64,000 nucleotides of DNA from an uncultured beta proteobacterium (GTDB lineage Bacteria; Pseudomonadota; Gammaproteobacteria; Burkholderiales; SG8-41), in NCBI GenBank assembly GCA_902825845.1, contig CADECM010000022.1:160-64159 (forward strand). Reading direction: 5' to 3'. Shown one piece after another: positions 15,223-60,982 of the stretch. Each line of letters opens with the position of its first letter. The first letter of the stretch is position 1. Position numbers and translations under genes: made by a program. The notes below the pieces were generated by a model. That model saw only the letters and a program-made list of their open reading frames with translations, did not search any database and was not told the origin of the DNA.

Positions 15223-16597
15223 ATTTACGAAGCGCCGTAACGGATACCGCACCGTCGAAGAACCCCGGTACCGATTTCAGAAATGCACTCAGTTGCGCCT
15301 CGTCCCATCCGCCAAACAGCGCATTGCGGCGGAACTTGTCCTCGATCTCGGCGCGCGTGAGCGGCTCCTGCGCGCCACCACGAATATGATTTTGCCGTTC
15401 CTCCACCACGCTGCCGTCTTTCAACGTCATGCGCACGTGGCCGGTGTAGGCCTTGGGATACGGATTGTTGGGGTCCACGACATAGCGCACCTTGGACGAC
15501 AGCGCAAGAATGCGCTCATCGCGCACGGTGTCCTCGGTAAATGCCGCAAGCCCCGCGCCGCCGGTCACAAACGCCACCGCGATATTGAACGGCGCGCTGA
15601 ACTTGGCCGCATAGTCGTTGGCCGGACGATGCTTGGACGGCAGCGGATCCCACAGCCGATGCACATAACCTTCGGCGGTTTCGCACAGGATGTCGGTCAC
15701 GTCTTCCGGCTTGATACCCTTTCTCGCAAGACGCAACGCGCAATCGACATAGGGCTGGTTCATGGTGCCGGTGGCATAGGGCTTGAAGGTAATGACATCG
15801 GTGTACCACTGTTTGCCGAAACCCTCGGTGAGCACGCCGTAATCGCCTTCCGCATTGCGCGCAAACGCATAGTAAAACCCATGCGTGCCCTCGAACACGG
15901 TGCGCGGCCCGAGAAACCCCTGCTGCCCGAAGCGCGCAGCCTGGATGCCGATCTTCGCCGCCCACCCCGCATGCAGGCGCTTGGTCCAAGCGCCCTCGGC
16001 CAGGTACTCGATGATGCCACCCGCCATGCTGCCAGCGATGCCCAGCGCATCCACGGTCTGCCTGCGATTCAGGCCCATGGTGACGCTCACTGCGAGCGTA
16101 GCCGCCATCGCGCCGAGAACGCCAGTCGGATGGAAGCCCGACTTGTGTATCGCCTTGGGGATCACCATCGACAGCCGGCACAGGGTTTCAATCCCCGCCA
16201 CCATGCCCTTGAACGCCGCCGTGCCATCGCAGCCAAAGCGCTCACACGCTGCCAGCACTGCGGGCATGATCACCGCGCTCGAGTGCACCGGACCACCCTC
16301 GAAGGTATCGTCAAAGTCTTCGCCGTGCGCCGCGCAACCGTTGATCATGGCCGCGGTTTCCGCTGCATAGGTCGCGCGATGTCCGATGGCGGTTGCCGCA
16401 CCGCCGCTGTCGACGCCCGCGACAACCGCCTTGATGTAGTCGGTATTGCGCGCCGCAACGCACAGGCCCACCACGTCGATCAGCAGTTCTTCGATGCGCG
16501 TGCGCACCGCCGCGGGAACGGCACTGACCTCCAGCGCCAGCGCCTGATCGGCGATGCGCTCTGCAACAGCCATCGTTTCATTCCGGGTCACAGTCAT
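15221..16597 (-). CDS. MmgE/PrpD family protein
   Basis: 458 aa from ATG 16597, 10 nt after the upstream stop. PrpD-like N-terminal regulatory and helical domain sequence. The 589-aa ORF extension overlaps the upstream gene and was rejected. Confidence 0.85.
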   Translation of the reverse strand: MTVTRNETMAVAERIADQALALEVSAVPAAVRTRIEELLIDVVGLCVAARNTDYIKAVVAGVDSGGAATAIGHRATYAAETAAMINGCAAHGEDFDDTFEGGPVHSSAVIMPAVLAACERFGCDGTAAFKGMVAGIETLCRLSMVIPKAIHKSGFHPTGVLGAMAATLAVSVTMGLNRRQTVDALGIAGSMAGGIIEYLAEGAWTKRLHAGWAAKIGIQAARFGQQGFLGPRTVFEGTHGFYYAFARNAEGDYGVLTEGFGKQWYTDVITFKPYATGTMNQPYVDCALRLARKGIKPEDVTDILCETAEGYVHRLWDPLPSKHRPANDYAAKFSAPFNIAVAFVTGGAGLAAFTEDTVRDERILALSSKVRYVVDPNNPYPKAYTGHVRMTLKDGSVVEERQNHIRGGAQEPLTRAEIEDKFRRNALFGGWDEAQLSAFLKSVPGFFDGAVSVTALRK

Positions 16598-18559: not shown

Positions 18560-20155
18560 ATGGACATGTTCGACTTTCAGTTTCCCTATCCGTCACAGCG
18601 TATGCCCGTGCTTGCGCGCAACTGTGTCGCGACCTCGCAACCGCTGGCGGCGCAGGCCGGCCTGCGCATGATGCTGAAAGGCGGCAACGCGGTGGACGCC
18701 ATCCTTGCCTCGGCCATCTCGCTGACCGTACTGGAACCCACCAGCAATGGCATCGGCAGCGACGCGTTCTGCATCATGTGGGACGGCAAACAGCTGAAGG
18801 GTCTGAACGCCTCGGGCCGCTCGCCGGCCGCGTGGACGCCCGACCGGTTCAAGGGCAAAAGTGCGATGCCGGCGCGTGGCTGGGATTCGGTGACGGTGCC
18901 CGGCGCGGTATCGGCATGGGTCGAGATGTCGGCAAAATATGGAAAGCTACCCTTCGCCGACCTGTTCGAACCCGCCATCAAGTACGCGAGCGATGGTTAC
19001 ATGGTTTCGCCAACGATTTCCCGCCTGTGGGCCGGTGGCGTCGCCGAGTTGAGCGCACAGCCGGGCTTTGCCGAGGCATTCATGCCGCATGGCCGCGCGG
19101 TGCAGGCCGGCGAAACCTTCGTGGCCAAGGCGCACGCGGCAACGCTTCAGCGCATTGCCGAGACCAAAGGCGAGGCTTTTTATCGCGGCGATCTCGCTGA
19201 AAAAATCGCGGCTTTCGCCAAACAACACGGCGCTGCGCTGACGCTCGAGGACCTGGCAACGCACACCCTCGACTGGGTGGAGCCTGTCGGCATCGATTAT
19301 CGTGGCTACACGCTGCACGAGATTCCGCCCAACGGCCAGGGCATCGCGGCGCTGATCGCGCTGGGCATCCTCGAAAACTTCGATGTCGCCGCGCTGCCGA
19401 TCGATTCCCCCGACTGCATGCACCTGAAAATCGAGGCGATGAAACTCGCGTTTGCAGACATCAACGAATACGTGTCGGACATATCCACCATGCGCGTGAC
19501 GCCGGCGCAGATGCTCGACAAGGCCTATCTGAAGGAGCGCGCCAAACTGATCGACATGAAAAAGGCCGGCACGCCGTCCTTCGGCACGCCCAGCAGGGGC
19601 GGCACGGTGTATCTCACCGCTGCCGACGAGTCGGGCATGATGGTGTCGTACATTCAGTCCAACTACTCCGGTTTCGGATCGGGCGTGGTGGTGCCCGGCA
19701 CCGGCATCAGCCTGCAGAATCGGGGCTATGGCTTCAGCCTGAAACCCGGCCATGCCAACGTCGTCGCGCCGAAGAAGCGCCCGTTTCACACCATCATTCC
19801 CGGCTTCCTGACCAAAGCCGGCCAGCCGCTGATGAGTTTCGGCGTGATGGGCGGCTCAATGCAGGCGCAGGGCCATATGCAGGTGGTTTCGCGCATGGTC
19901 GATTACCACCAGAACCCGCAGGCAGCCAGCGACGCACCGCGCTGGCGCATCGACAGCGGGGTCACGGTCGGCATCGAGCACGGCGTGCCCGCCGCGACCA
20001 TTGCCGCGCTGCAGGCGCGCGGCCATGACATGCCGCAGGCGGATCGCTGGAGCACGGACTTCGGCCGCGCGCAATTGATTTACAAGATGGAAAACGATGG
20101 CGGCTACTTCGCCGCTTCGGAACGGCGGGCCGATGGCCAGGCGGTAGGTTACTAA
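18560..20155 (+). CDS. gamma-glutamyltransferase family protein (paralog 2)
   Basis: 531 aa with the GGNAVDAILA motif and the nucleophile context GGTVYLTAAD. Divergent from paralog 1. Confidence 0.85.
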   Translation: MDMFDFQFPYPSQRMPVLARNCVATSQPLAAQAGLRMMLKGGNAVDAILASAISLTVLEPTSNGIGSDAFCIMWDGKQLKGLNASGRSPAAWTPDRFKGKSAMPARGWDSVTVPGAVSAWVEMSAKYGKLPFADLFEPAIKYASDGYMVSPTISRLWAGGVAELSAQPGFAEAFMPHGRAVQAGETFVAKAHAATLQRIAETKGEAFYRGDLAEKIAAFAKQHGAALTLEDLATHTLDWVEPVGIDYRGYTLHEIPPNGQGIAALIALGILENFDVAALPIDSPDCMHLKIEAMKLAFADINEYVSDISTMRVTPAQMLDKAYLKERAKLIDMKKAGTPSFGTPSRGGTVYLTAADESGMMVSYIQSNYSGFGSGVVVPGTGISLQNRGYGFSLKPGHANVVAPKKRPFHTIIPGFLTKAGQPLMSFGVMGGSMQAQGHMQVVSRMVDYHQNPQAASDAPRWRIDSGVTVGIEHGVPAATIAALQARGHDMPQADRWSTDFGRAQLIYKMENDGGYFAASERRADGQAVGY

Positions 20156-20184
20156 AAATAGTTGTTTAAAAACAAATACTTACA
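20155..20184 (+). repeat. AT-rich boundary motif, copy d
   Basis: AAAATAGTTGTTTAAAAACAAATACTTACA. Overlaps the stop codons of both convergent genes (20153..20155 and 20180..20182). Confidence 0.7.
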
Positions 20185-20908
20185 TTCTAAGCGTTGAAGC
20201 GTTGTCTTCCTCCAGCAGCGCTTGTAATGTCCTGGACTTGAATTCGCGGTGATACAACACCGCGATCACCCACGCCGTTGCCACCACCATCAGCACCGGA
20301 TGCAGGAACCAGCCCATCGCCGCCACGGCGAAATAGTACGAGCGCAAGCCGTGATTGAAATTCGACATCGCGTAAGACGTGATGCGGGCGATGCGATTGA
20401 TTTGTGCGGCGAATTGCTCCGGGTTTTCCTTGGGCATCTTCGGGCCGGCCGCCACCAGAATGCCTGCGAAATTGACCTGCCGTATCGACCAGGAAAACTT
20501 AAAGAACGCGTGCACGAAAATCAGCACCAGCAGCAGCATCTTCAGTTCCAGCAGCCGCGATGAGGCCTTGACCGTAAACGGCAGTCCCGACACCAGATCC
20601 TGCGCCTGCTGCACATAGCCCATTGACGCCAGCAACGCACCGAGAATCAGCATGGTGGTGGAGGCAAAAAACTGCGAACTGCGCGTAATGTTGCGCATCA
20701 CGTTGACATCGACCATGCGGTTGTCGCGCCCGATCATCTGCACCATCCACTCGCGGCGAAAGTGGTCCATTCTCGTATGCAGGCTGGGCACCCGCCTGCC
20801 GTGCCAATCCGCGAATACCACGTAGCCGACCCAGCCCGCCGCGAATAGCAACACGGCGGCAAGGTCGGACCAGGTGAGACTGAGTTCAGTAAATATTCTG
20901 CCGAGCAT
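20180..20908 (-). CDS. DUF599 family membrane protein
   Basis: Multi-TM protein whose N-terminus WSDLAAVLLFAAGWVGY and overall pattern resemble DUF599. Start ATG 20908; an alternative is 20929. Confidence 0.6.
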   Translation of the reverse strand: MLGRIFTELSLTWSDLAAVLLFAAGWVGYVVFADWHGRRVPSLHTRMDHFRREWMVQMIGRDNRMVDVNVMRNITRSSQFFASTTMLILGALLASMGYVQQAQDLVSGLPFTVKASSRLLELKMLLLVLIFVHAFFKFSWSIRQVNFAGILVAAGPKMPKENPEQFAAQINRIARITSYAMSNFNHGLRSYYFAVAAMGWFLHPVLMVVATAWVIAVLYHREFKSRTLQALLEEDNASTLRM

Positions 20909-21024
20909 GATGCCGCGATTGTAAAGCAATCATCCGCGCGCCGGTCCGGGCGTTTACATTACAATCCTGCTCCACAATACTCGAACCGCCGACAAACGCT
21001 GCCTTTACCCGGCAAGGAATCGCC

Positions 21025-21705
21025 ATGACGTCGCCCAACACCGGCATGCTGCTGGCCATGCTGGAACTGCAGGACAGCATGAACCGCAAGATCGACAACG
21101 ACTGGTTGTCAAAGCGCCACGCCTATCTGCGCGCGGTGCTGGTCGAAGCCACCGAAGCACTGGAGCACTACGGCTGGAAGTGGTGGAAAAAGCAAACGCC
21201 CGACATGGCGCAATTGCGCATTGAAATGATCGACATCTGGCATTTTGTGCTGTCGGAGTACCTGTTGCGTGCGGGCGGCAACAAGAACGCTGCGCTACAA
21301 GCAATGCTAAGCGACTGGCATGCCGGCGCCACCGTTGACTTGGATGGCACGCACTACGAACTGGATACACTCGACATGCGCCGGCAACTTGAACTGCTGG
21401 CCGCGCTGGCAGCGGTACGGCGGCTGTGCCTGCCACTGGTGGCGCGGCTGTTTGCCGCCAGCGATTTGCCGCCGGCCGCGCTGTTTCGCGACTACGTATC
21501 GAAAAACGTGCTCAACCACTTTCGGCAGGATCGCGGCTACAAAAGCGGCACCTACAAAAAATTCTGGGATGGTGCCGAGGACAACGTGCACATGGCACAA
21601 CTGCTGGAATCCATCACCGTGCCTGATGAACACCTGCCCGACGCTTTGTATCATGCACTGGCGGCACGCTACGATCAATTGTCGGCGGCGGGCAGGCTGG
21701 GCTGA
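21025..21705 (+). CDS. dimeric (all-alpha) dUTPase-like NTP pyrophosphohydrolase
   Basis: MLELQDSMNRKI..LRAVLVEATEALEHYGWKWWKK..IEMIDIWHFVLS pattern resembles the dUTPase_2 family. Confidence 0.55.
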   Translation: MTSPNTGMLLAMLELQDSMNRKIDNDWLSKRHAYLRAVLVEATEALEHYGWKWWKKQTPDMAQLRIEMIDIWHFVLSEYLLRAGGNKNAALQAMLSDWHAGATVDLDGTHYELDTLDMRRQLELLAALAAVRRLCLPLVARLFAASDLPPAALFRDYVSKNVLNHFRQDRGYKSGTYKKFWDGAEDNVHMAQLLESITVPDEHLPDALYHALAARYDQLSAAGRLG

Positions 21706-21755: not shown

Positions 21756-22733
21756 CTACTGATCCAGCTTGATGTTGGCGGCCTTGATCGCGTGGGCATA
21801 TCGCGCCGTCTCAGCCTTGATCCTGGCGGCGAATTGCGCCGGATTCGAAACGTAAGGTTCGGCCCCCACCGTGGCCAGCCTTTCCCTGACATCCGGCATC
21901 ACCAGAATCCTGCCGATCTCATCCGACATTTTGCCGATGAGCGGCTTCGCGACGCCGGCGGGGAACACCACGCCCTGCCAGTAGTTCACGTCGAAATTCG
22001 GCAGGCCGCCCTCGCCAAAGGTCGGCAGCTGTGGCAAGGCCGCCAGGCGCGACTCCCCCGTAATGGCCATGGCCTTGAGCTTGCCGCTCTTCACATGACC
22101 AATCAGGTTGATCGGAACGTTCAGATGCGCCTGCACCTGACCACCGAGCAGATCCACCAGCGCCGGACCGCCACCTTTGTACGGCACGTGCTGCAGCTTG
22201 ATGCCCGCCAGGATGCTCAATACTTCCATCGCGACATGGCCCTGACCACCGCTGCCGGACGAGGCGTAGTTGAGTTTCCCGGGACGGGACTTCGCATACG
22301 CAATCCACTCCTGCAGGTTGCCCACCGGTATCGAGGAATGCAAGACCAGCATGAACGGAATGCGCGTCAGGGAGGCTACCGGCGCGAAATCGCGCAGCGT
22401 GTCATATGGCAGCCTGGGGTACAGATTCGGCAGAATCGCCAGCGTGCTGTCCACGAATAACATGGTGTAGCCATCCGGCGTGGCACGGGCGCCAATTTCA
22501 GTTCCGATAATGGTATTGCCGCCGCCACGATTATCCACCAGCACCTGCTGGCCCCAGCCATCGGTCAGCTTCTGACCGATGATGCGTGCCACCACCGTGG
22601 TACCGCCGCCTGGCGGGTATGGCGTAATGAATCGAATTGGCTTGGCAGGATAGGATGGCTGGGCGGCGGCACCGGTGACAGCCAACATCACGCCTGCAGC
22701 CAGCACGCTCGTCCATGCGATTGAGCACCTCAT
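21756..22733 (-). CDS. Bug family tripartite tricarboxylate transporter substrate-binding protein (TctC-like)
   Basis: Signal peptide followed by the YPAKPIRFITPYPPGGGTT motif. Start ATG 22733. Confidence 0.85.
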   Translation of the reverse strand: MRCSIAWTSVLAAGVMLAVTGAAAQPSYPAKPIRFITPYPPGGGTTVVARIIGQKLTDGWGQQVLVDNRGGGNTIIGTEIGARATPDGYTMLFVDSTLAILPNLYPRLPYDTLRDFAPVASLTRIPFMLVLHSSIPVGNLQEWIAYAKSRPGKLNYASSGSGGQGHVAMEVLSILAGIKLQHVPYKGGGPALVDLLGGQVQAHLNVPINLIGHVKSGKLKAMAITGESRLAALPQLPTFGEGGLPNFDVNYWQGVVFPAGVAKPLIGKMSDEIGRILVMPDVRERLATVGAEPYVSNPAQFAARIKAETARYAHAIKAANIKLDQ

Positions 22734-22918
22734 TGCCTGACCTCCCGGACTTCGGGTTGAACATTCGGTCGCACTACTGGTGCAAGCCCGCGCGACATTC
22801 CGCAGGATGTGCGACAGGTTACACAAAATGCACCGACCACGGCTAATGCTATCGGTGTGGCTGCTATCGACAACACGGGGTTATGCACACGGACTGCGCC
22901 AGTCGCGCTTTCGCCGCG

Positions 22919-22953
22919 CCGAAAACACAGCGGCCACCCGCAGGTGGCCGCTG
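22919..22953 (-). terminator. candidate intrinsic terminator after the UGSC gene
   Basis: 11-bp perfect stem CAGCGGCCACC / GGTGGCCGCTG with a 4-nt loop, followed on the minus strand by TGTTTTC. Confidence 0.5.
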
Positions 22954-22970
22954 GCCGGCGCACACCACAA

Positions 22971-23507
22971 CTAGCCCTTCTGCCCTTCCAGCAGCAACTT
23001 AGCCACTTCCGGCGCAATGGCCGCCGCGCGCTCGTCGAGTTGCTTGTCCGTCAGATTCGCAATCGGATGCGGCATTTCGAGGAAACGGAAGCCCTCCAGT
23101 CCCCAGGTGCGTGCCATGGCATTGCCGGTGGCGCGGAACACGTGGGTGATGATCGAGGCCGAGGGAATCCCTTGCTGTTCAAACACGATGCTGTCGAGCA
23201 CACTGCCCGAGCTGCATGACCCTCAGTCGCCGACGCCGGCAACAATGACGTCGACGTTGCCTTTGTATTCCTCGATGATCTCGGCATGCGGCGCCGAACC
23301 CGAACTCTTCTTGCGGCGGATCACGCGCGACTTGGTGCCGTGTTCCTTTTCCAGTATGTCGGCAATACGCATCAGCAACTGGTCAGAGTTGTGCTTGGTG
23401 TTGTCGATCAGACCGACCCGCAGGCCGTTGAGAGACTTGGGACGTGGCGCGTAATTGATGCGCCGCCCCGCTATCTCGGTGGTGGGATCCAGAATTTGCA
23501 CGGTCAT
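22971..23507 (-). CDS. UGSC-type (GrdB/PrdB-like) candidate selenoprotein with an in-frame TGA
   Basis: ATG 23507 has AGGAG upstream. ORFs 23223..23576 and 22971..23201 are in the same frame and are joined by the TGA at 23223..23225. Read-through gives ...VDVIVAGVGD-U-GSCSSGSVLDSIVFEQQGIPSASI...EMPHPI. Confidence 0.7.
23194..23210 (-). promoter_or_regulatory. candidate SECIS-like hairpin downstream of the UGSC TGA
   Basis: mRNA UCGGGCA-GUG-UGCUCGA, 13-29 nt after the UGA. The loop contains G and U. Confidence 0.3.
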
Positions 23508-23595
23508 ATGATGTGCTCCTTTCGATGAAAACAAACAAAAAAACCTTTGCCACAGATTAACGCAGATCAAAACCAAAGGGGTTTGCGACTCACGC

Positions 23596-24627
23596 CTACT
23601 TGATCTCCCGCGTCACGCTTTGCGAGCCGTTTTTGCCGCCCCAGCCCGGGATAAAACACGATTGCACGCCGGCAATGCCGCCCGCCGCGATCACCAGGAA
23701 ATCCTGCGGGGTTTCCACCAATGTCACCATGTTCTTTTCGTCATCCGCGGTCACCTCGCCCGGGGCGACGTGAATGCGCTTCAATTCCGCCAGCGACGTC
23801 CTGGAATGCTCGAAACAGAAATTCTGCACCTGCTCGCGCGTCCAGCCGGCTTTCTTGATGGTCAACTGATGCTCGCCCGGAAACACCATAGCATACTGCG
23901 GCTTGCGATTGCTGCCCGCGGATATACGCATGCTCGCGCACATGGTTTCCAGTATGCCGTCAGGCGTGGCGCTCAACTGGTTGGAAATCTGGTGCGGGGC
24001 CAGTGCCGCGAACACGGTCACCGCGTTCTGCTCCCTGCTGAAGCCGCGCGTGGTATGGAACGGCGGCCACGGACTGCTGTCCGTCTCGTTCTCGGCGATG
24101 CAGTAGGAATACTTGCCGCCGTGTCCCATGCTGCTGCGATCCAGTTCGCCGGGCAGCGTACCAATCACATTGCGCATTACCAGCCGCACTGCGCGGCCGA
24201 TGGTGGCGTTCGCGCGCCAGCCGGGGCCGAACAGGTTGTCGCCGGAATTCATGTCGAGCTTTTTGGCAATGGGGCCGTTTACCAGCATGAATACCGCCGA
24301 TCCGCCGGTGCTGGTGGCCGGGCCATGGTAACCATACTTGGGGTCCGCCAGCGCTTCGATCGCGGCGGCCACCACCGGCATGTATTCGGGCTTGCAGCCG
24401 GCCATCACAGCGTTGATCGCCACTTTTTCCGCGGTCACTTTCACCTGGCGGTTTTCGATAAACGCCAGCTGGTGCTGCGGATCGAGTTTGGCCGCCGTCA
24501 GCATCGCTTCGACTTTTTCCGCGGTCGGCGGTATCACCGGCAGACCGTCGGTCCATCCGTTCGCGTAGCAAAGTTCCAGCGCATCCCCCACATCCTTCGC
24601 GTCATGCCGCCGTGCTTTCAGTTCCAT
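23596..24627 (-). CDS. conserved-looking hypothetical protein (343 aa), family not recognised
   Basis: AGGAAAG lies upstream of the ATG. Sequence blocks GWTDGLPVIPPT and AINAVMAGCKPEYMPVV. Sits immediately upstream of the UGSC gene. Confidence 0.65.
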   Translation of the reverse strand: MELKARRHDAKDVGDALELCYANGWTDGLPVIPPTAEKVEAMLTAAKLDPQHQLAFIENRQVKVTAEKVAINAVMAGCKPEYMPVVAAAIEALADPKYGYHGPATSTGGSAVFMLVNGPIAKKLDMNSGDNLFGPGWRANATIGRAVRLVMRNVIGTLPGELDRSSMGHGGKYSYCIAENETDSSPWPPFHTTRGFSREQNAVTVFAALAPHQISNQLSATPDGILETMCASMRISAGSNRKPQYAMVFPGEHQLTIKKAGWTREQVQNFCFEHSRTSLAELKRIHVAPGEVTADDEKNMVTLVETPQDFLVIAAGGIAGVQSCFIPGWGGKNGSQSVTREIK

Positions 24628-24679
24628 GTTGGACTTTCCTGATGGTGATATTTATTAACAGCCTCTCGCGATTTCAGCG

Positions 24680-25765
24680 TCAAGTCAAGACGTATTTCGC
24701 GTCACAACGCGCGCAGATGTCGCGAATGTGCCGATCCAGCTTTTCCGGTATCGGGATGCCATTCTTGAGCCGGCTTTCGCGCTCGGCGGCCTCCGGATCG
24801 CCCGCCACCAGCACCGGGCGCTCGGGGTCCAATGGCGGCGTGGCATGCAAAATGTCGATCACCTCGTCCAGATCGTTCTCAAACTCCCCTTCTCCGCGAA
24901 AGGCCCTGGGATCGATGGCCAGAAAAAAATGCCCGATGTTGTCCGGATCCTTGTCGCCCTGCGATTTTTCGCGAATGGGTGAAAAACTGCCGCCGTTCAG
25001 GGTACCGCCGAGAATATGCGCCATCATCGCCAGGCCATAGCCTTTGTAGCTCGCCATCGATTCCATGCCGCCCACCGGCGTGATGCCGCCCGCCTTGTTG
25101 CCCTCGCGCATCATCGCCAGGGCCTTGCCCGCATCGGTAACCGTCCTGCCCTCGCCGTCAATCACCCAGCCTTCGGGCAATTTCTTGTTGTTCAGGTCGT
25201 AGACCTTGACCTTGTTGGCGGCGGAGGTGGTGGTCGCCATATCGAGCGTGAACGGCCGGTTGCGTTTTGCCGGCGCGCTGAAGGCGATGGGATTGGTGCC
25301 CAGCACGGGAATTTTGCCGCGCGTGGGCACCATGGTAATCCCGCGCGTGGCGCTGGTCACCATGCCGATTACGCCGCGCCTGGACGCGATGCGCGCGTAG
25401 ACGCCAGTGGCGCCGAAGTGATGCGAGTTGCGCACGCCCACGCCGGCAACACCAATTTTCAGCGCCTTGTCCACCGCGAGGTTCATGGCGAACACCGACA
25501 CCGGATGGCCCAGACCAGCCTGTCCGTCGACCAGCGCCATCGCCGGCGTATCTCGAACAATGGTGGGCTTGGCATGCAGGTTGAGCTTGCCCTCGAGTTT
25601 GCGCGCCTCGTACGTCATCAGCATCGAAATGCCATGCGAATCCACGCCCAGCAAATCGGTTTCCACCATCGCATCGGCGGTGATGGCGACCAGATCGTCC
25701 GCCATACCCCAGGCACGAAGGATGTTGACGATTTGCTGGCGCACGCGGTCGTGAGTGATGTTCAT
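24680..25765 (-). CDS. Ldh_2 family (malate/L-lactate/sulfolactate dehydrogenase-type) oxidoreductase
   Basis: 361 aa with MVETDLLGVDSHGISML and RNSHHFGATG motifs. Confidence 0.85.
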   Translation of the reverse strand: MNITHDRVRQQIVNILRAWGMADDLVAITADAMVETDLLGVDSHGISMLMTYEARKLEGKLNLHAKPTIVRDTPAMALVDGQAGLGHPVSVFAMNLAVDKALKIGVAGVGVRNSHHFGATGVYARIASRRGVIGMVTSATRGITMVPTRGKIPVLGTNPIAFSAPAKRNRPFTLDMATTTSAANKVKVYDLNNKKLPEGWVIDGEGRTVTDAGKALAMMREGNKAGGITPVGGMESMASYKGYGLAMMAHILGGTLNGGSFSPIREKSQGDKDPDNIGHFFLAIDPRAFRGEGEFENDLDEVIDILHATPPLDPERPVLVAGDPEAAERESRLKNGIPIPEKLDRHIRDICARCDAKYVLT

Positions 25766-25872
25766 GAAGGCTCCGTTCTGTGATGGTCAAACAACCGGCA
25801 AACGTATTCGGAACAGAAAAAGCACCCGGCGCAGCTTGCATCCGCAGGCGCCCGCCCGGATCAACACGGCAC

Positions 25873-26634
25873 TTATATCATGGTCGCGCCGCCGTTCACA
25901 TCCATCGTCACGCCGGTCACGTAGGAGGCCTCGGGACTCGCCAGAAACACCACCGCCGCCGCGATTTCTTCCGGCCTGGCGAGGCGGCCCACCGGCGTGG
26001 ATTTTTCGATGTGCGCAATACGCTCCGGCGTGCGTATGCCAAGGGTGCGCGGCGTCAGCACATTGGCCGGCGCGACCGCATTCACGGTGATGCCGTATTT
26101 ACCCAGATCGAGCGCCGCCTGCCGCGTCAGCGCCAGCACGCCGCCCTTTGCCGCGGTGTAGTGCGGCGGATTGGGATTGACCCCGCTGCGTGCCGCCATG
26201 CTGGAGAGGGTGACAAAGCGGCCGTAGCTTGCGCCCATCATCAGCGGCGCGGCGGCCTTCAGCAGGTAGAACATCGAACGCAGATTCGAATTGACCACCG
26301 TATCCCACGCTTCCACCGGACAGTCGATCAGATTCACGTACTGGGGAAAGCCGCCGGCGCTGTGCACTACGATGTCGAGTCGTCCCGCGCGCGCGTGCGC
26401 GTCCTGCACCGATTTCTGCGTCGCTTCCCAGCTCAGCAAATCCGTGACGCACGGCCAGGCCTCGCCGCCTTCGGCAACGATCGAATCAGCAACGCGCCGC
26501 GCGCCCGCGGCATTGATGTCCATCACGCCAACACGGGCGCCACGGCGCGCCAGTTCGCGCGCGGTGGCTTCCCCGATGCCGGTTGCCGCTCCGCTCACCA
26601 ATGCAAATTGCCCGGCAAAACCACTGGTAGTCAT
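25873..26634 (-). CDS. SDR family oxidoreductase
   Basis: VSGAATGIGEA cofactor motif and the YxxxK context SAYGVSKAG-type (YTAAKGG). Start ATG 26634. Confidence 0.85.
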   Translation of the reverse strand: MTTSGFAGQFALVSGAATGIGEATARELARRGARVGVMDINAAGARRVADSIVAEGGEAWPCVTDLLSWEATQKSVQDAHARAGRLDIVVHSAGGFPQYVNLIDCPVEAWDTVVNSNLRSMFYLLKAAAPLMMGASYGRFVTLSSMAARSGVNPNPPHYTAAKGGVLALTRQAALDLGKYGITVNAVAPANVLTPRTLGIRTPERIAHIEKSTPVGRLARPEEIAAAVVFLASPEASYVTGVTMDVNGGATMI

Positions 26635-26711
26635 CGATCTTCCCCTCGCGATTATTGGTTTCAAATCAATCGCTGCAGCAGCGGTGAACCCCGCCACAAC
26701 ATCGCGGCGCG

Positions 26712-27701
26712 CTACTTGGCCTCAAGCTTCGCGTCACGCACCACCTTCGTCCAGCGTGCAATTTCGGATTGCACATGCGCCATGAATCCCTCGGGCGTGG
26801 CGGTGTCGACATCGACAGCCTGTTCTTCCAGGCTTTTCCACAGTGGGCTGCCGTCGGCCAGCAGCTTGTTCATGTCGGCATTGATTTTGGTGATGACAGG
26901 CTGCGGCACCTTTGCCTGCGTGCACAGGCCGTACCAGCCCGTGACATCAAAACCGTTTACGCCCTGCTCCTGAAACGTCGGCACCGCCGGCAAGCGAGAG
27001 TTTCGTTTCGCCGACGTCACGCCCAGACCGCGCAGGCGACCGGATTTGACCGCGGACAGCGGTCCACCCGCAAGATTGCCGACCGACGATTCGATGTGCC
27101 CCGCCATCACGTCAGCCAGCGCCAGCGCCGCTCCCTTGTACGGCACATGCACGATTTTGATGCCGGTGATATTCATCATCAGTTCGACCGACATATGCGG
27201 CGATCCACCCACCCCGGAAGAACCAAAGTTGACCTGACCGGGGTGTGCCTTGGCATAAGCAATGTATTCGCGCAGGGACTTCGCCGGCATGGACGGATGC
27301 ACCATGAAAATATTGGGCACGCCGCCGATCTTCGCGGCAAACGCAAAGTCCCGGATGGGATCGTATTTCAGGCGTTTGCCAAAGCGCGCGGGCGTGACAC
27401 TGTGCGACCCGATATTGCACAACACCAGCGTATAACCGTCAGGCGGCGCGGCCGCCGTGATCTCCGTGGCAATATTGCCTGCCGCGCCGGGCCGGTTTTC
27501 CACCAGTACCTGCGTGCTCCACGCTTTGGTCAACGCCGATGCCACCAGGCGCGCGGTGGTGTCGACGCCGCCCCCCGGGGCGTAACCGACCAAAATGCGC
27601 ACGGGCTTCGACGGATAATTTTGCGCGGTGGCGGGTGGCACGAAACAGGACGTCGCTGCCAACAACGGCAGGGCAATGGCACGCGATCTGAAATACATCA
27701 T
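26712..27701 (-). CDS. Bug family tripartite tricarboxylate transporter substrate-binding protein (TctC-like)
   Basis: Signal peptide followed by the YPSKPVRILVGYAPGGGVD motif. GAGGAG lies upstream of the ATG. Confidence 0.85.
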   Translation of the reverse strand: MMYFRSRAIALPLLAATSCFVPPATAQNYPSKPVRILVGYAPGGGVDTTARLVASALTKAWSTQVLVENRPGAAGNIATEITAAAPPDGYTLVLCNIGSHSVTPARFGKRLKYDPIRDFAFAAKIGGVPNIFMVHPSMPAKSLREYIAYAKAHPGQVNFGSSGVGGSPHMSVELMMNITGIKIVHVPYKGAALALADVMAGHIESSVGNLAGGPLSAVKSGRLRGLGVTSAKRNSRLPAVPTFQEQGVNGFDVTGWYGLCTQAKVPQPVITKINADMNKLLADGSPLWKSLEEQAVDVDTATPEGFMAHVQSEIARWTKVVRDAKLEAK

Positions 27702-28133: not shown

Positions 28134-28859
28134 TTATACCGGATCGCGTTGCGGCGCGGCGCGCAGCAGCGCGCTGTAGTACGCCGGCTGCGGCAGTCCG
28201 CTGAAGGACGCCAACTGGATCGGTCCTGACGCATCCGCTTCGCGCCACCACAGCGTCTTGCCATGGGCCATTGACTCCCATCCGTGCACAGCGGCCATGT
28301 GTATGAGACGCTGCATGTCGAGCCCGGCCGGGATTGCCATTTCAAAGTTGCCGGACGGCGCCTGCCACCAGGCCGCCAGCGCGGCGACTGGCGCATCGTG
28401 CGCCGCGGCAGCCGCCGCCGGAAACGGCATGGAGGCCAGATGTTCCTCGAATCGCTGCAGACTGAAATCAACACTCAAGGTTGCCAGCGCGGTTTCTTCC
28501 AGGTCACCGTACCAGTCGCGCGCGCTCAGGAACGCACTGACAGCTCCCGCGCAAACCGGCATCGCGACGGCTATCGTCAGCGGAAAATGTCGTCCCACCT
28601 TGTCAACACTGGGCATCATGACGCCGCCCCACAAGGTGTCGCCGATCACACCGGGCATCAACACAAATCGCCATACGGGACTATTCATGTAGATATCGAG
28701 CCATTTCTGACCCAGCAGGTCGCGGCTAGCCGTCATCGCCTGTTGCAGCCAGCCGTCCCAGATGGATATAAACGGCTGGCTCAGGCGGCGCGAGGCAAAG
28801 TCGCCGAGCGACGGTATCTTGCCGTACCAGCCCGGTACCCGCTCCGCGTCCGCCGCCAT
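28134..28859 (-). CDS. tagF: type VI secretion system-associated protein TagF (DUF2094)
   Basis: VPGWYGKIPSLGDFASRRL N-terminus. The ATG overlaps the tssM stop (ATGA). Confidence 0.8.
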   Translation of the reverse strand: MAADAERVPGWYGKIPSLGDFASRRLSQPFISIWDGWLQQAMTASRDLLGQKWLDIYMNSPVWRFVLMPGVIGDTLWGGVMMPSVDKVGRHFPLTIAVAMPVCAGAVSAFLSARDWYGDLEETALATLSVDFSLQRFEEHLASMPFPAAAAAAHDAPVAALAAWWQAPSGNFEMAIPAGLDMQRLIHMAAVHGWESMAHGKTLWWREADASGPIQLASFSGLPQPAYYSALLRAAPQRDPV

Positions 28860-31800
28860 CAGAGTCCGCCCGGACAGCGAAACTGTTCCAGGTCCTGCAG
28901 GCGGAACGGATTGCGCACGCTGCTCGCGGTCACCTCGAACTGCGCCTGCCGCCCGTCGATCACGAAGGTGGCCAGGAACTTCTCCGCCTGCGGCGTCGCT
29001 TCGATCTTGACCTGATCGAACATGCGGAACAACGCCCACGGCCCTTCGAACGGGCCAAAGCCGCGCGTGGCCGGCGGTGTCAGCTGTACGCGCACCTGGG
29101 TACTGCCGCGCGGGCCCGGCCACTGCACCGCCTGCGGCACCTGCGGACCGTGGCTGTATTTGACGATCTGGCCGTCCACATCGAGGATGAATTGCGAGAT
29201 CGCGACATCCATCGACAGCGGTTTGAAATCGAGCCGCAGGCTGGGCGTCGCGCCGCCGCGAAAGAACACCTCGCGGATGGTCTGGGCGCGCTGGAACTGC
29301 AGCAACGTGCCGCCGTCACCGCCCATGCTGGCGTCGCCCACCTGGCGGAAGCGCCAGGGTTGCGCGGCGGTGTCCACCAGTGAGGCAAGATTCTTCTGGA
29401 AAAAACCGTCCATCAGCCGTCCGGAACCGAACAACTGCGCAAAATCTTCCTGCGTCACATTGCTCGCGCTGCCTTTGGCGAACGGATAGCGCCCGCCGAT
29501 CGCCTTGCTGCAGAAGCCGTAAATTTCAGCCTGCACCGCCTTGGATAAATTGTATTTCATGCCTGAAAGCGCCTGATTCTGTCCCGCCAATGCGAGCGTG
29601 CTCAACAAGGATTTGACGGGCTCGGGCAGGCGCCCGGCCTCCGCCTTGGCCTTGATCGGCAAATCGGTGGGCGGCGGCGGATTGCCGCCCTTTACCGCCA
29701 GTTCGGTGGCCGTGAGCTGGGCATAGAGTTCGCCGATCAGCGACAGCGTTCCGTCGATGGGCGCGGGTTGTCCCTGGCCCGCGCCTCGCACATACTCGCG
29801 CAACGCAGTAAAGCGGTCATCGACGATCAGTTCGGGCCGCGACAGCGTATCGGCCGCGGGCGCCGCGGCGCGCTGTGAGCCGCCCATCAGGCGTCCCATC
29901 GTTTCCTTGGTCTTGGCGATCACGTCTTCCGCTTTGCGCACCACGTCCTTGTCTGCATCCGCCACGCTCACCAGCGTCACCTCCTTGACGATGGCCTGCA
30001 GCAGCCGGCGCAACGGCGAATCGGGCGCGGCCAGCACGCGCGTCTGCTGGATCGTCTGCGACAAACCGCCGCCGTGCTGCAACCGTACGTCTTCGACAAA
30101 CGCGCTCCAGGTATTCGCGTAATCCGTCAGATACAGACGCTTGACCTCGTTGAGCAGCGCTTCGCGGGTCTTGAGATCGCCGGGATTGATGCGTTCCGCC
30201 TTGGGCAAATCCAGCACCCAGCCCTCCTCGCTGGCGAGCTGATTGGTGACCACCAGCGAGTCCTTCAGGAAACTGCCGTGGTATGCCTGATAACTGAACA
30301 GACCGGGCACCCCCGAGTTCAGCGGCTTGCCGCTGGCGCGCGCGAACACCAATGCCGCCGATGGCCCGGCCGCCGTGGCCAGCTTGAACTCCGGCTGTCC
30401 CTTGCCGATGCCCAGGCGCTTCAGGCGGCTGTAGACGCGTTCCGCCAGCGGCATGCGTGCCAGTGCGGCGCGCGCTTCAGCCAGCAGACTGGCGTCGGCG
30501 GGCACCGGCGAGGCAACGGCGCCCTGGCGGAACAATTCGGCGAGGTGTTCGCGCAAGGCCACGCGCTGCTCGCTGGTGACACTCTGCGGCAGATTGCGTT
30601 CCCAGTCGGATTCGATATACCCCTGCAATGCGCCGGCATCGAAGTGTTCGACATCGTGCAGCATGATGTAGGCCTTGAGCGTTTCGTAGAGAAACTCGAC
30701 GCTCTGATCACCGCGATTGCGCAACTGGGATTCGATGCGCCGCGAAAGACTCGGCAGGAACGCACTCTGCAGCACCCTGCGGTAGGCACTGTTGGCAGCA
30801 CCCTCCAGCTTGTCACTTTGCGACAACCCCAAGCCCATCAACAGGCCGTCGCGATTGGCGTCGGTGGACGGCAGATCGCGGATCGATTGCAGCAGCGGCA
30901 GCAGCCTCACCACGTCGCTTTCGCCGGCCGGATTGAGCGCTGCCACCTGTTTGGCCAGCGGCGGCACCTTCGCCTGCACCGCGGCGACGTGCGCCTTGTT
31001 GCGCGTGTAACTGATGGTCCAGGCGGCCACGCTGCCGAGGGTGACCGCCGTGGCCAATCCCAGTCCCGTCCACTGCAGCAAGGTTCGGCGGCGCTCCCAG
31101 CGCAGGTTGGCGCCCGCCAGCCCGGCCTCGTTGAAAATCACCGAATCCAGCAATCGCGTCAGGAAATAGCTGCGGCCGCTGGGTTGCTGCGGCGCGAGCA
31201 TGCGTGCCTCCAGGCGCAGCGCGCGGCCGAGACTGCCGATGACGCGGTCGATCGCGCTGCCTTCCTGGGTCCCACTGGTGAAGTAAACGCCGCGCAGCAT
31301 CGGCTGTTCCACAAAGCGCGACGGCGCAAACACCTTGCCCACGAAGTCGTCCAGAATGCCCTTGAGACTGCTGAATTGCTGCGGAAAGGCGTAAATCAGC
31401 GCGCGCAGATTGGGGGTGCGCTCATCCTGCAACAGGTCGATGACGCGATCATTGAGGCGCTGTTCCAGCGCATCGAATTCGGACCTGAACGCGGGTGCCG
31501 CCGGCCCCGCCTCGGCCGCCTGAAACGCGAACGTGGTGCCCCAAACCTGCGCGCGCTCTTCCGCGCCGAGCTTCTGGAAGAACTCCACGAACCCCGCCAG
31601 CAAATCCATCTTCGTCACCAGCACGTAGATCGGGAAGCGGATGCCCAGCTGTTCATGCAACTCTTCCAGGCGCTGGCGCAGGATGCTGGCGTGGTGTTCG
31701 CGCTCCGCGGCCGATTGCTGCAGCAGATCGCTGACACTGATCGTCAACAGCGCGCCGTTGATGGGGCGCCGCGGGCGGAATTTCCGCAGCAGGGAAAGAA

Positions 31801-32446
31801 AGCCGCTCCACGCCGCGCGATCGACCTCGACATTCGCTTCATGCGTGGTGTAACGGCCCGCGGTATCGATCAGTACCGCCTGATCGGTGAACCACCAGTC
31901 GCAATTGCGCGTGCCGCCGACGCCGCGGATCGCCTCCTGCCCGAAGCGCTCGGCCAGCGGAAACTTGAGGCCGGAATGAATCAGCGCGGTGGTCTTGCCC
32001 GAACCCGGCGCGCCGATGAAGATATACCAGGGCAACTGATAGACATAGCGCCTGGACAAGCGCGCGGCGAGGCCGGGTGCCTTGTCGCTGCCGCCCAGCC
32101 GCGCCTTGCTCAGAATCTTCATCGCGTCTTCAAAACGATTGCCCAGCGTGGCAATCTCGTCCGCGCCGGGCGCGTCCTGCGCCGGCCTGGCGGGCGCTTG
32201 TTTCAACAGCGTTTCGAACAGCCGCGCATTGTTCAGTTTCGCCCGCAGCGCACGCCAGGCGATTCGGCCCAGGAACAAGCCCCACACCACGGCAATGGCT
32301 ATCCAGCGCGCCGTGGCGGACTCCAACGGCCGGTACTCGCCAAGCGCAAGCAGCGGCCCGCCGTACCAGATGACCAGACTGATCAGCAGCAGGCCCAGTG
32401 CCGTCATCGTCCAGCGATTGAAGATCCAGCCCAGAAGCTTTTTCAT
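28859..32446 (-). CDS. tssM: type VI secretion system membrane subunit TssM (IcmF)
   Basis: ~1195 aa with N-terminal TM helices, Walker A GAPGSGKTT and an IcmF-like C-terminal region. Confidence 0.9.
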   Translation of the reverse strand: MKKLLGWIFNRWTMTALGLLLISLVIWYGGPLLALGEYRPLESATARWIAIAVVWGLFLGRIAWRALRAKLNNARLFETLLKQAPARPAQDAPGADEIATLGNRFEDAMKILSKARLGGSDKAPGLAARLSRRYVYQLPWYIFIGAPGSGKTTALIHSGLKFPLAERFGQEAIRGVGGTRNCDWWFTDQAVLIDTAGRYTTHEANVEVDRAAWSGFLSLLRKFRPRRPINGALLTISVSDLLQQSAAEREHHASILRQRLEELHEQLGIRFPIYVLVTKMDLLAGFVEFFQKLGAEERAQVWGTTFAFQAAEAGPAAPAFRSEFDALEQRLNDRVIDLLQDERTPNLRALIYAFPQQFSSLKGILDDFVGKVFAPSRFVEQPMLRGVYFTSGTQEGSAIDRVIGSLGRALRLEARMLAPQQPSGRSYFLTRLLDSVIFNEAGLAGANLRWERRRTLLQWTGLGLATAVTLGSVAAWTISYTRNKAHVAAVQAKVPPLAKQVAALNPAGESDVVRLLPLLQSIRDLPSTDANRDGLLMGLGLSQSDKLEGAANSAYRRVLQSAFLPSLSRRIESQLRNRGDQSVEFLYETLKAYIMLHDVEHFDAGALQGYIESDWERNLPQSVTSEQRVALREHLAELFRQGAVASPVPADASLLAEARAALARMPLAERVYSRLKRLGIGKGQPEFKLATAAGPSAALVFARASGKPLNSGVPGLFSYQAYHGSFLKDSLVVTNQLASEEGWVLDLPKAERINPGDLKTREALLNEVKRLYLTDYANTWSAFVEDVRLQHGGGLSQTIQQTRVLAAPDSPLRRLLQAIVKEVTLVSVADADKDVVRKAEDVIAKTKETMGRLMGGSQRAAAPAADTLSRPELIVDDRFTALREYVRGAGQGQPAPIDGTLSLIGELYAQLTATELAVKGGNPPPPTDLPIKAKAEAGRLPEPVKSLLSTLALAGQNQALSGMKYNLSKAVQAEIYGFCSKAIGGRYPFAKGSASNVTQEDFAQLFGSGRLMDGFFQKNLASLVDTAAQPWRFRQVGDASMGGDGGTLLQFQRAQTIREVFFRGGATPSLRLDFKPLSMDVAISQFILDVDGQIVKYSHGPQVPQAVQWPGPRGSTQVRVQLTPPATRGFGPFEGPWALFRMFDQVKIEATPQAEKFLATFVIDGRQAQFEVTASSVRNPFRLQDLEQFRCPGGL

Positions 32447-32526
32447 GCGCGACTCCGGCCGCAAAACCGCCCGCGGCGCGCGCGCAGCGTCCGGCAGCGG
32501 CATTCCCGCGTCAAGGCGCGCATCGC

Positions 32527-33837
32527 TCAGGTCCCCTTGCTGGCGGCAAACAGCGTGATCTCGATGCGCCGGTTGCGCGAACGGCCGTCCGCGCCGGCGT
32601 TATCGGCGATGGGCTCGGCATCGGCGCGTCCTTCGGCGGACAGACGCTCCGCGGGCACCACCTGCGCAATCAGACGCAGCACCATGCGCGCGCGTTCCTC
32701 CGACAAATGCCAGTTCGACGGGAAGCGTGCGGTGCGTATCGGCTGGTTGTCGGTATGGCCGATCACCTGAACCTTGCCGGGGACGCCCTTCAATGCGTCC
32801 GCAATGCGCTGGATCAGTGGCAGATAGCGCGCGGAAATGGTGGTGCTGCCAGGCTCGAAAAGACCGTCGCCACGAATCGTAACCACGCTCATGGTGCGTT
32901 CGTCGCGCACGGCCACCAGTCCTTCGGCGATCTCCGGCGCGAGGAAAGTGGCCAGACGCGGCGGCACCGGTAGCGGCGCGGCCGCGGCAGGCGCCGGTGC
33001 CGGCGCGGTGACACGAAGGGCCTGAATCCGCGCATACGTCTGATCCGACAGATCGCCCAGCTTGTAGCGGTAGACAAAGTACACGCTCAGCATGATCGCC
33101 GTCGCAAGCGTTCCGGCAATCCACAGCGGCAGCGCATCGAGAATTTTGGAACGCGCCGCGACCACGCCTTTCCAGCGCGGAGACAGGTCGCGCTCATAGT
33201 CGCCGGCGGCCTTGTGCAATATCTGCGCAAGGCGCTCGCGCAGCACTTCCAGCTGCGAGCGCCCATTGTCAATCACCCGGTAGCGGCCCTCAAAGCCGAA
33301 GGCGAGGCACACATACATGAGTTCCAGCAGCGAACGGTTCGCCGCGGGATTTTCCGCCAGCTTGGACAGCAGCTGAAAAAACTTCTCGCCGCCCCAGGTC
33401 TCATTGTGAAACAGCACCAGCAGGCTGTTGCGTGCCCACATGCCCGATCCGCCCCACGGCGTGGAGGCAGCCGTCTCGTCCACCACCGTGCACAGCACAT
33501 AGCGGGCAGCAATGATGTTTTCCGCGGAAACGCCGGCCTCGCGCGCGCGCATTTCGAAGCGCTTGATTGCTTCCACCAGATAATCGCGCAGGGCCGCGGC
33601 ATCCGGATGATTGAGCGTGGTGCGCAACTGCGGAATAACATCGAGCAGTGGGTTGGCCGCGGCCACCAGCGGATTCATGCCGGCAACCACCGGGGGATCG
33701 GCCACCTGCGCCGGCGCACCAGTATCCGCGGCCGCGCGGGCCGCGCCTTGCCCGGGGATACTGCGCCCGCCCGGCGTGGGCATGATCACCGTCCGTCCGG
33801 CTTCCGGCATCGCAAAGGGATCGTCGTTGTTGCTCAT
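32527..33837 (-). CDS. tssL: TssL/DotU with a C-terminal OmpA/MotB peptidoglycan-binding domain
   Basis: DotU-like N-terminal domain, a TM helix, and a C-terminal OmpA-like region (HTDNQPI..NWHLSEERA..NRRIEI). Confidence 0.9.
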   Translation of the reverse strand: MSNNDDPFAMPEAGRTVIMPTPGGRSIPGQGAARAAADTGAPAQVADPPVVAGMNPLVAAANPLLDVIPQLRTTLNHPDAAALRDYLVEAIKRFEMRAREAGVSAENIIAARYVLCTVVDETAASTPWGGSGMWARNSLLVLFHNETWGGEKFFQLLSKLAENPAANRSLLELMYVCLAFGFEGRYRVIDNGRSQLEVLRERLAQILHKAAGDYERDLSPRWKGVVAARSKILDALPLWIAGTLATAIMLSVYFVYRYKLGDLSDQTYARIQALRVTAPAPAPAAAAPLPVPPRLATFLAPEIAEGLVAVRDERTMSVVTIRGDGLFEPGSTTISARYLPLIQRIADALKGVPGKVQVIGHTDNQPIRTARFPSNWHLSEERARMVLRLIAQVVPAERLSAEGRADAEPIADNAGADGRSRNRRIEITLFAASKGT

Positions 33838-33848
33838 GGCGCGGCCGC

Positions 33849-60815: not shown

Positions 60816-60982
60816 CGTACTCCCCCGCGGATTATCACGTCTTCTTCCTGATCATCGACCGCCAGCCGCGCGGCGGCATCGAAATCATCGCGCCGACGCG
60901 AACTCCATGCCCACAGCACGATGCCCACGAACGCCACAAAAAGCACTGCCGTCATGACCGACCTGAACCATCCCATATCCAT
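60812..60982 (-). CDS. ccoQ: cbb3-type cytochrome oxidase subunit CcoQ (small ORF absent from the 60-aa track)
   Basis: 56-aa ORF MDMGWFRSVMTAVLFVAFVGIVLWAWSSRRRDDFDAAARL... with GAGGTGA upstream. It starts 8 nt after the ccoO stop, and its stop overlaps the ccoP ATG (ATGA). Confidence 0.65.
   Translation of the reverse strand: MDMGWFRSVMTAVLFVAFVGIVLWAWSSRRRDDFDAAARLAVDDQEEDVIIRGGVR

Follow-up and report, generated by a model that had tools for sequence, protein, structure and literature searches.

The stretch of DNA analysed here, referred to at its full 64,000 nucleotides (nt) as the window, comes from an uncultured beta proteobacterium and carries six co-directional minus-strand genes between positions 27701 and 21756. 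The fourth and fifth of these are the subject of this work. One (23596..24627, −) encodes a 343-amino-acid (aa) protein of a very large unnamed family, and its open reading frame (ORF) carries GWTDGLPVIPPT and AINAVMAGCKPEYMPVV. The other (22971..23507, −) encodes a 178-aa selenoprotein of the UGSC family (PF24696, NF041046), with selenocysteine at residue 95. The run begins with a TctC/Bug periplasmic solute-binding protein of 329 aa (26712..27701, −; PF03401, E 3.7e-59), followed by a short-chain dehydrogenase/reductase (SDR; 25873..26697, −, with a likely ATG at 26634; adh_short_C2, E 4e-63) and a 361-aa Ldh_2-family dehydrogenase of 2-hydroxy/2-oxo (or imino) acids (24680..25765, −; PF02615, E 6e-105), which scores under all NCBIfam equivalog cut-offs. 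Gaps within this TctC-SDR-Ldh_2-343-UGSC run are 14–107 nt, and the 343-aa and UGSC genes are separated by 88 nt on the same strand. An intrinsic terminator (22928..22953, −; 11-base-pair stem with 9 GC pairs, T run) closes the unit after UGSC, and a second TctC/Bug gene lies beyond it (21756..22733, −; PF03401, E 7.5e-68). This gene order had been described in the original prediction made for this DNA, and every feature is present at the minus-strand coordinates given here.

The pairing of the two genes extends far beyond the window. A genome scan for the 343-aa family, with one genome per species, returned at least 597 loci, and neighbourhoods were counted in the best 80 of these, from about ten phyla. 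UGSC lies beside the 343-family gene on the same strand in 65 of the 80. The usual order is 343 then UGSC with a gap of 0–250 nt, at times with overlapping stop and start codons; the reverse order occurs in five loci, and a single inserted gene in three. Fifteen loci have no adjacent UGSC, three of them ending at a contig edge. A lookup from the UGSC side gave the same picture: all four loci looked up, each with a cysteine-type UGSC (Janthinobacterium, Pseudonocardia, Paraburkholderia and a metagenome contig), have an adjacent 343-family gene, three overlapping it by a few bases. Recurrence in 65 independent species-level loci is more than chance adjacency. A gene-neighbourhood census had been proposed with the original prediction, and the UGSC–343 linkage is conserved from both directions. 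The nearest relatives of the 343-aa protein from the window belong to uncultured Burkholderiales, and loci L002 and L005, whose 343-aa proteins are 78–83% identical to it, keep the pair with other genes upstream.

The two domains also occur in one chain, in both orders. Fusions of 343 then UGSC are about 460 aa long and stop exactly at the selenocysteine position (P0123, P0125, P0194 and P0227), and in fusions of UGSC then 343, 533–560 aa long, the UGSC domain is complete and of the cysteine type (P0150, P0282 and others). Homologues about 420 aa long are numerous and start directly past the selenocysteine position. In the DNA of locus L093, UGSC and 343 follow each other in one frame of 539 codons, which has a single in-frame TGA. 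An AlphaFold2 (AF2) model of fusion P0150 had a predicted template-modelling score (pTM) of 0.91, and the two domains are therefore predicted to be placed confidently relative to each other. Conserved adjacency in both orders, overlapping codons and fusions in both orders strongly support the 343-aa protein as the partner of the selenocysteine subunit UGSC, the role that had been proposed for it. A fusion of UGSC with an unnamed domain, 'Unknown_1', was reported earlier from a few aquatic organisms (PMC2398784). This domain is probably the 343-aa family.

Copy number and arrangement of the pair vary among genomes. Two or more pairs per genome are present in L013, L014 and L053, and OX638345.1 and CBDBMT010000003.1 have two loci each. 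Proteins of about 710 aa (P0121, P0126-P0128, P0130 and P0153) are tandem duplications of the 343 domain, and L062 has three consecutive 343-family reading frames. Multiple pairs together with tandem duplicated 343 proteins fit a family that diversified over many substrates. On plasmid 2 of Halalkalicoccus jeotgali (L101, 5953-8652), one UGSC gene stands between two 343 paralogues; haloarchaea have the cysteine form of UGSC. Several pair-bearing metagenome-assembled genomes (L010, L024, L080, L046 and L083) are titled 'Bordetella parapertussis' or 'uncultured Enterobacteriaceae'. These labels are probably wrong, as gene content and neighbours are like those of environmental Burkholderiales and others.

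There is nothing unusual about the UGSC gene as a member of its known family. It matches PF24696 with E 5e-56 (189.9 bits, cut-off 25) across residues 4–173, on both sides of an in-frame TGA, and NF041046 with 140.6 bits (cut-off 125). The TGA, read as selenocysteine, is codon 95 (23223..23225, −) within the motif GVGD-TGA-GSC. The equivalent codon is TGA in 67 of 69 UGSC genes beside 343-family genes across phyla, and TGC in one or two. A selenocysteine insertion sequence (SECIS)-like hairpin follows 13–16 nt after the TGA (23194..23210, −; stem UCGGGC/GCUCGA). The single-sequence fold of the region after the TGA was not significant alone (z = −0.29), and the hairpin became evident through comparison of homologues. 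Across 64 distinct homologues from many phyla, the six core pairs are 100% paired, and a G and a U of the apical loop are invariant. One pair varies in identity (U-A 42, G-U 15, A-U 5, C-G 1, U-G 1) and another is C-G in 60 and G-C in 4. The covariation score was 0.170, compared with 0.053 for shuffled partners (0 of 500 reached the observed value) and at most 0.081 for slid partners. The hairpin lies within coding sequence, where Gly/Cys and Leu/His alternatives are coupled (SSGSVL versus SSCSVH). The codon pairs GGC/CUC (Gly...Leu) and UGC/CAC (Cys...His) switch together, so the apparent amino-acid covariation is RNA base pairing. With a TGA followed by a covarying hairpin, the candidate selenoprotein of the original prediction is borne out, and the TGA is a genuine selenocysteine codon. 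Window scans returned no Rfam model at threshold and no tRNA, and the selenocysteine machinery is not encoded in the window. Elsewhere, on plasmid pFER4 of Paracoccus ferrooxidans (L100, 5396-12143), a selenocysteine-type UGSC–343 pair lies 3 kb from selB, and selA may be the gene of a 454-aa 'hypothetical protein' that immediately precedes selB. On this megaplasmid the selenocysteine machinery appears to travel with the UGSC–343 module.

The UGSC-containing protein was named in 2008 by Zhang and Gladyshev, with a thioredoxin-like fold expected (PMC2398784), and the UGSC literature offers neither a function nor a partner. By its curated score, U-G-S-C motif, TGA and SECIS-like hairpin, the gene in the window is a full member of the family as described. 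Modelling of the fold gave a different result from that expectation. The UGSC domain of the AF2 fusion model has a flavodoxin-like three-layer alpha/beta/alpha arrangement, and flavodoxin, lumazine synthase, PTS IIB and NQO1-type folds make up its matches among the top 50 in the PDB. There was no thioredoxin among these 50, the modelled protein being a fused homologue and not the UGSC of the window. The latter probably has a flavodoxin-like alpha/beta fold as well. In the model, the redox motif is positioned after a beta-strand, a few residues ahead of the next helix.

The partner belongs to a large family that is absent from curated resources. The 343-aa protein had no Pfam-A match even at E = 10, no NCBIfam match, and no PDB sequence match either as a single query or as an 83-sequence profile, in line with the earlier statement that it could not be placed in any family. 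A HMMER search of 1.84 billion cluster representatives found 5158 clusters at 50% identity that match the family at E ≤1e-3, 1238 of them at E ≤1e-30. The loci listed come from Burkholderiales, Methylomirabilota/Rokubacteria, Dehalococcoidia, Ktedonobacteria, Poribacteria, Binatia, Acidobacteriota, SAR324, Actinomycetota and Alphaproteobacteria, and Rhodobacterales and haloarchaea are among the carriers. The gene is also present on plasmids of cultured organisms (Arthrobacter, Variovorax, Roseovarius, Paracoccus, Vibrio, Sporomusa and the haloarchaea Natrinema and Halalkalicoccus), where it is always labelled 'hypothetical protein'.

Conservation within the family is concentrated on a few residues. 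D27, C78, N140, R145 and E179 are 96–100% conserved in about 250 members (C78, 96%), followed by C176 (88%), K172, D163, H191 and H253. The protein from the window has all four family motifs, GWTDGLPxxPPT, NAVMAGC, FGPGWRANATIGR and GKYxxCxAE; D27 lies in GWTDGLP, C78 in NAVMAGC, and N140 and R145 in FGPGWRANATIGR. Judged from the alignment, such conservation is what an enzyme active site would show, with a putative catalytic cysteine and candidate positively charged substrate contacts. The C176 position is otherwise mostly Val (about 10% of members). A compensatory relocation of this cysteine (C176V with H212C) was considered and rejected, as V176 co-occurs with H, R or C at position 212. No internal repeat was detected when the family was aligned to itself with hhalign. 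A variant found in Poribacteria (L031, L036, L047, L050 and L056) lacks profile positions 282–316 and has no UGSC in the flank; it retains all conserved active-site residues.

Structure prediction did not place the 343-aa protein in a known fold. The AF2 model, built from 83 sequences, had a mean predicted local distance difference test (pLDDT) value of 87.6 and a pTM of 0.90, and no PDB match above a template-modelling (TM) score of 0.31. The profile searches and modelling that had been suggested for this protein thus returned neither a family nor a fold. Foldseek ranked class I iron-sulfur fumarate hydratases highest (E 2e-4 to 1e-3, probability 0.8–0.87), with TM 0.25–0.31 and root-mean-square deviation (rmsd) of 14–17 Å. 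Among them is 7xky_A, the alpha subunit of a two-subunit archaeal enzyme. Another weak match was cyanuric acid hydrolase/barbiturase, and a search against viral structures returned no match.

These matches raise the alternative that the pair is a two-subunit iron-sulfur hydro-lyase like class I fumarate hydratase, tartrate dehydratase or aconitase X. A [4Fe-4S] cluster at the interface would be held by C78, C176 and the UGSC selenocysteine (or cysteine), and water would be added to or removed from an organic acid with no net redox change. The architecture fits: a large subunit and a small one of about 180 aa, sometimes fused, is also seen in the two-subunit fumarate hydratases (PDB 7xky, 5l2r), the best if weak fold matches. 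These enzymes differ from the 343-aa protein, however, in having no detectable sequence similarity to it, and the low TM and high rmsd values speak against a common fold. Class I fumarate hydratases take three cluster cysteines from one chain, whereas the 343 family has two conserved cysteines, and at one of these, C176, about 10% of members have valine. U-x-x-C is a redox motif, and we know of no precedent for selenocysteine as a ligand to an iron-sulfur cluster. Together with the thioredoxin genes described below, these features make a hydro-lyase improbable.

The recurrent additional partner of the pair is the thioredoxin system. Thioredoxin reductase, with or without thioredoxin, is encoded in or beside the unit in five annotated loci. 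The gene order is trxB-trxA-343-UGSC in Arthrobacter sp. ERGS1:01, where trxA overlaps the 343 gene, 343-UGSC-trxB in Roseovarius sp. THAF8, and trxB-TctC-SDR-343-UGSC, close to the layout of the window, in Variovorax sp. SRS16. In Pseudonocardia and Paraburkholderia, a gene resembling that of thioredoxin reductase, with a CATC motif, lies beside the pair. In P0223, the 343 domain is fused to a thioredoxin reductase domain with CAVC. A hydro-lyase leaves both the operon genes for thioredoxin reductase and thioredoxin and this fusion unexplained. A further CxxC module is the NifU-like domain fused to Arthrobacter UGSC, and in Janthinobacterium and Paraburkholderia a small CxxC (CEDC) protein without a Pfam match, which by eye appears NifU-like, is encoded directly after UGSC. 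NifU-like domains are cluster carriers, and the fused domain and the CEDC proteins therefore also count in favour of an iron-sulfur enzyme.

The electron path that these genes suggest would resemble that of the low-molecular-weight thiol reductase relays that supply peroxiredoxin, methionine sulfoxide reductase or arsenate reductase, in which electrons pass from NADPH to thioredoxin reductase (CxxC), then to a small redox protein and on to an enzyme cysteine. Neither UGSC nor the 343-aa protein falls in those families by sequence or fold, and unlike in those relays the acceptor here would be the 343-aa protein, which has no solved relative.

A second comparison is with the Stickland reductases, D-proline reductase, in which PrdA is paired with the selenoprotein PrdB, and glycine/sarcosine/betaine reductase, whose protein B pairs GrdE with the selenoprotein GrdB; they are reduced via thioredoxin reductase and thioredoxin. 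We aligned UGSC with 17 PrdB-like Global Ocean Sampling (GOS) sequences, for which the supplement of PMC2398784 gives the label 'proline reductase'; of three tested, two match Pfam GRDB. The hhalign comparison gave a probability of 76.8% and P 2.1e-5 for a segment of about 70 residues (68 columns), while the best of 20 column shuffles reached P 0.06 and the reversed alignment 0.18. Selenocysteine is aligned on selenocysteine and second cysteine on second cysteine, with identical spacing to E-x-x-G-I-P-[ST]. The pattern in common is U-x-x-C, 11 residues, E-x-x-G-I-P-[ST] and then [HYF]-P-[LI]-[GA]. This alignment moderately supports a selenocysteine segment shared by UGSC and PrdB/GrdB-like proteins.

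UGSC itself had no GRDB (PF07355) match even at E = 10. In the one PrdB-like match that reaches the end of the 347-position GRDB model, the model ends just before the selenocysteine, and a plain Pfam scan therefore misses the link. The GRDB seeds were probably truncated at the TGA. The earlier description of UGSC as GrdB/PrdB-type is moderately supported, through the selenocysteine segment. Membership in the Stickland reductase family is not established, as the 343-aa protein is no relative of PrdA/GrdE and UGSC lacks the N-terminal GRDB region.

The two systems are alike in pairing a U-x-x-C selenoprotein with a larger, proposed substrate-binding subunit, and in having thioredoxin reductase and thioredoxin genes within the operon in some organisms. 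Their components differ. UGSC is much shorter than the PrdB/GrdB-like GOS reads, which have ~100–170 residues ahead of the selenocysteine, and lacks the part that Pfam GRDB covers in PrdB/GrdB. The 343-aa partner shows no similarity to PrdA/GrdE, which are self-cleaving pyruvoyl proproteins (no Pfam match; hhalign against the PrdB-like set, P 0.48), and unlike in Stickland glycine reductase there are no equivalents of GrdA, GrdC or GrdD. The carriers of the pair differ as well, being aerobes and haloarchaea. In the window, genes for the cbb3 oxidase subunits CcoN (COX1), CcoO (FixO) and CcoP (FixP) are present at 59922-63167 (−), with a 484-aa ORF downstream at 58484-59938. The organism therefore respires oxygen, and the cbb3 oxidase named in the original prediction is indeed encoded at 59.9–63.2 kb.

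Our preferred interpretation, to which we assign a probability of about 50%, is that the 343-aa protein and UGSC are two subunits of one enzyme, a thioredoxin-driven two-component reductase. UGSC would be the redox subunit, with its selenocysteine within U-x-x-C, and the 343-aa protein the catalytic, substrate-binding subunit, with C78, C176, D27, N140, R145 and E179. The selenolate may first attack a substrate or intermediate bound on the 343-aa subunit. A selenenyl-sulfide would then form with C98 of UGSC or a partner cysteine, to be re-reduced by NAD(P)H via thioredoxin reductase, a step in which thioredoxin or a NifU-like CxxC domain may also take part. By analogy, such a cycle would follow the logic of the clostridial glycine and proline reductases, here in aerobes. 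Since the pair is promoter-distal in the TctC-SDR-Ldh_2-343-UGSC run, its substrate is probably a small organic acid that the Bug protein imports.

Several observations weigh against this interpretation. Among the 80 loci, which are mostly of the selenocysteine type, only 3 have thioredoxin reductase near the pair, and the thioredoxin system is not encoded in the window. The genomic context of the pair is highly variable, and reviews up to 2026 class UGSC as a protein of unknown function. In twelve full-length loci the fetched flank contains no UGSC, and the 343 protein retains every conserved residue. In fused forms the motif reads U/C-G-A-S, with the second motif cysteine lost, and in the divergent UGSC–343 fusions of Sporomusa termitida (L097, 6281-8005) and Vibrio europaeus (L098, 6371-8056) it reads M-G-T-S, which leaves it without a redox residue. 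Both of the latter keep C78 and C176 and adjoin aconitase X and DUF126 genes. A redox-active residue in UGSC is therefore not indispensable for the 343 domain to work, and these variants fit a hydro-lyase as well.

The same variants bear on another alternative, in which the 343-aa protein would catalyse a non-redox reaction that depends on a cysteine, for example as an isomerase, racemase or hydrolase, and UGSC would be its protector and not a co-catalyst. UGSC would keep the catalytic cysteine reduced, or remove an adduct or persulfide from it, in oxic cells. C78 is 96% conserved, and members whose UGSC-like domain lacks Cys/Sec have it too; full-length 343 genes without an adjacent UGSC keep all catalytic-looking residues. 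Selenocysteine resists irreversible over-oxidation, and the carriers are mostly aerobes. In addition, DsrE, TusA and cysteine desulfurase genes lie near the Paracoccus pair. However, a 1:1 gene ratio, translational coupling and repeated, independent fusions in two orders are typical of obligate subunits and not of a repair factor. Retention of selenocysteine in 67 of 69 genes argues for a demanding catalytic role, as does the segment homology to the catalytic selenocysteine loop of PrdB/GrdB. We consider a purely protective UGSC unlikely.

The two-component reductase can be given a more specific form. The pair might be related to the Stickland reductases but compatible with oxygen, and common across aerobic bacteria and haloarchaea; its UGSC selenocysteine would cleave a C-N, C-O or C-S bond reductively with thioredoxin electrons. 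The 343-aa protein would then hold a small carboxylated substrate, possibly via a self-generated electrophilic group or C78. This version is tentative, and we rate it at well under even odds. If true, selenium-dependent reductive bond cleavage would not be limited to anaerobic fermenters, and a function would be at hand for one of the most abundant selenoproteins of fresh and sea water and for a family of more than 5000 clusters.

Genes up to 6 kb away from the pair were compared across the 80 loci by searching six-frame translations with seed proteins. SDR genes were near it in 23 loci, NHL-repeat proteins in 18, luciferase-like monooxygenases in 14, family III CoA-transferases in 9, GMC oxidoreductases in 7, TctC in 6 and Ldh_2 in 1; ornithine-cyclodeaminase-type genes were near it in none of the 80. 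An SDR as a conserved third subunit was considered and rejected. The neighbouring SDRs are only 27–35% identical to that of the window and are non-orthologous. Even in L002 and L005 the identity is 30%, despite a 343-aa protein that is ~80% identical. With variable neighbours and non-orthologous SDRs, the Bug-SDR-Ldh_2 run is therefore a local acquisition.

This census also bears on a specific form of the uptake and reductive pathway put forward in the original prediction, namely that the whole run (Bug, SDR, Ldh_2, 343 and UGSC) is one conserved pathway for import and reduction of a cyclic imino or 2-oxo acid. The selenocysteine enzyme would reduce or reductively open the Ldh_2 product, as an analogue of proline reductase. 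Within the window, the co-directional genes, the gaps of 14–107 nt and the one strong terminator at the end agree with this, and the Variovorax order trxB-TctC-SDR-343-UGSC is similar. Enzymes of the same chemistry lie beside the pair elsewhere: Ldh_2 in L033, ornithine cyclodeaminase/mu-crystallin in L091, and aconitase X with DUF126 on two plasmids, in Sporomusa and Vibrio. The counts for Ldh_2, ornithine-cyclodeaminase-type genes and TctC speak against it, and the commonest neighbours elsewhere are NHL-repeat proteins, luciferase-like monooxygenases, CoA-transferases and GMC oxidoreductases. L002 and L005 have no upstream Ldh_2 or TctC, and their SDR is a different one. A conserved Bug-SDR-Ldh_2-pair pathway is thus quite improbable and finds no support as a general feature; the imino-acid idea is a lead and not a conserved feature.

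In the GOS survey, UGSC-containing proteins formed one of the three to five selenoprotein families of highest abundance, and in non-marine samples they ranked top (PMC2398784). What the present analysis adds is a near-obligate partner for UGSC, from a large family without a name, along with a recurring thioredoxin link and homology of one segment to PrdB/GrdB. UGSC is almost never alone, and its partner is a very large family missing from Pfam and NCBIfam; for annotation, this argues for a new 343-aa family model and joint naming of the pair. Cysteine-type pairs with their own thioredoxin reductase and thioredoxin are available from the cultured Arthrobacter sp. ERGS1:01, Roseovarius sp. THAF8 and Variovorax sp. 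SRS16. Such pairs are expressible in E. coli without selenocysteine insertion machinery, which makes the question testable.

The remaining features of the window concern the surroundings of the run. The only strong terminator of the region is the hairpin directly 3' of the UGSC stop codon; all other terminator-like matches are 5-base-pair stems within coding sequence, in a number equal to that in shuffles. The second TctC gene is therefore probably transcribed on its own. This gene is missing from the nearest syntenic relatives, L002 and L005, in which a dUTPase_2 gene directly follows UGSC. Positions 18560-21705 of the window (dUTPase_2 and gamma-glutamyltranspeptidase) are syntenic with 11785-14059 of L005, the relative at 83% identity, and the second TctC gene and a DUF599 gene are inserted in the window between the pair and this block. 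Of the tripartite tricarboxylate transporter (TctABC, with TctA and TctB as membrane subunits), the check covered the two TctC genes, and the ORF list contains no long membrane ORF within 21.7–27.7 kb.

Upstream, the run adjoins the end of a type VI secretion cluster (28134-35189, −). It comprises TagF (28134-28835, −), the 1214-aa TssM/IcmF (28859-32503, −) and, upstream of TssM, two large ORFs that are likely TssL and TssK (32527-33837 and 33849-35189, −). An MmgE/PrpD-family gene lies at 15335-16453 (−), 7 kb off the operon, and a gene of this family is likewise found beside the pair in L091 and L092.

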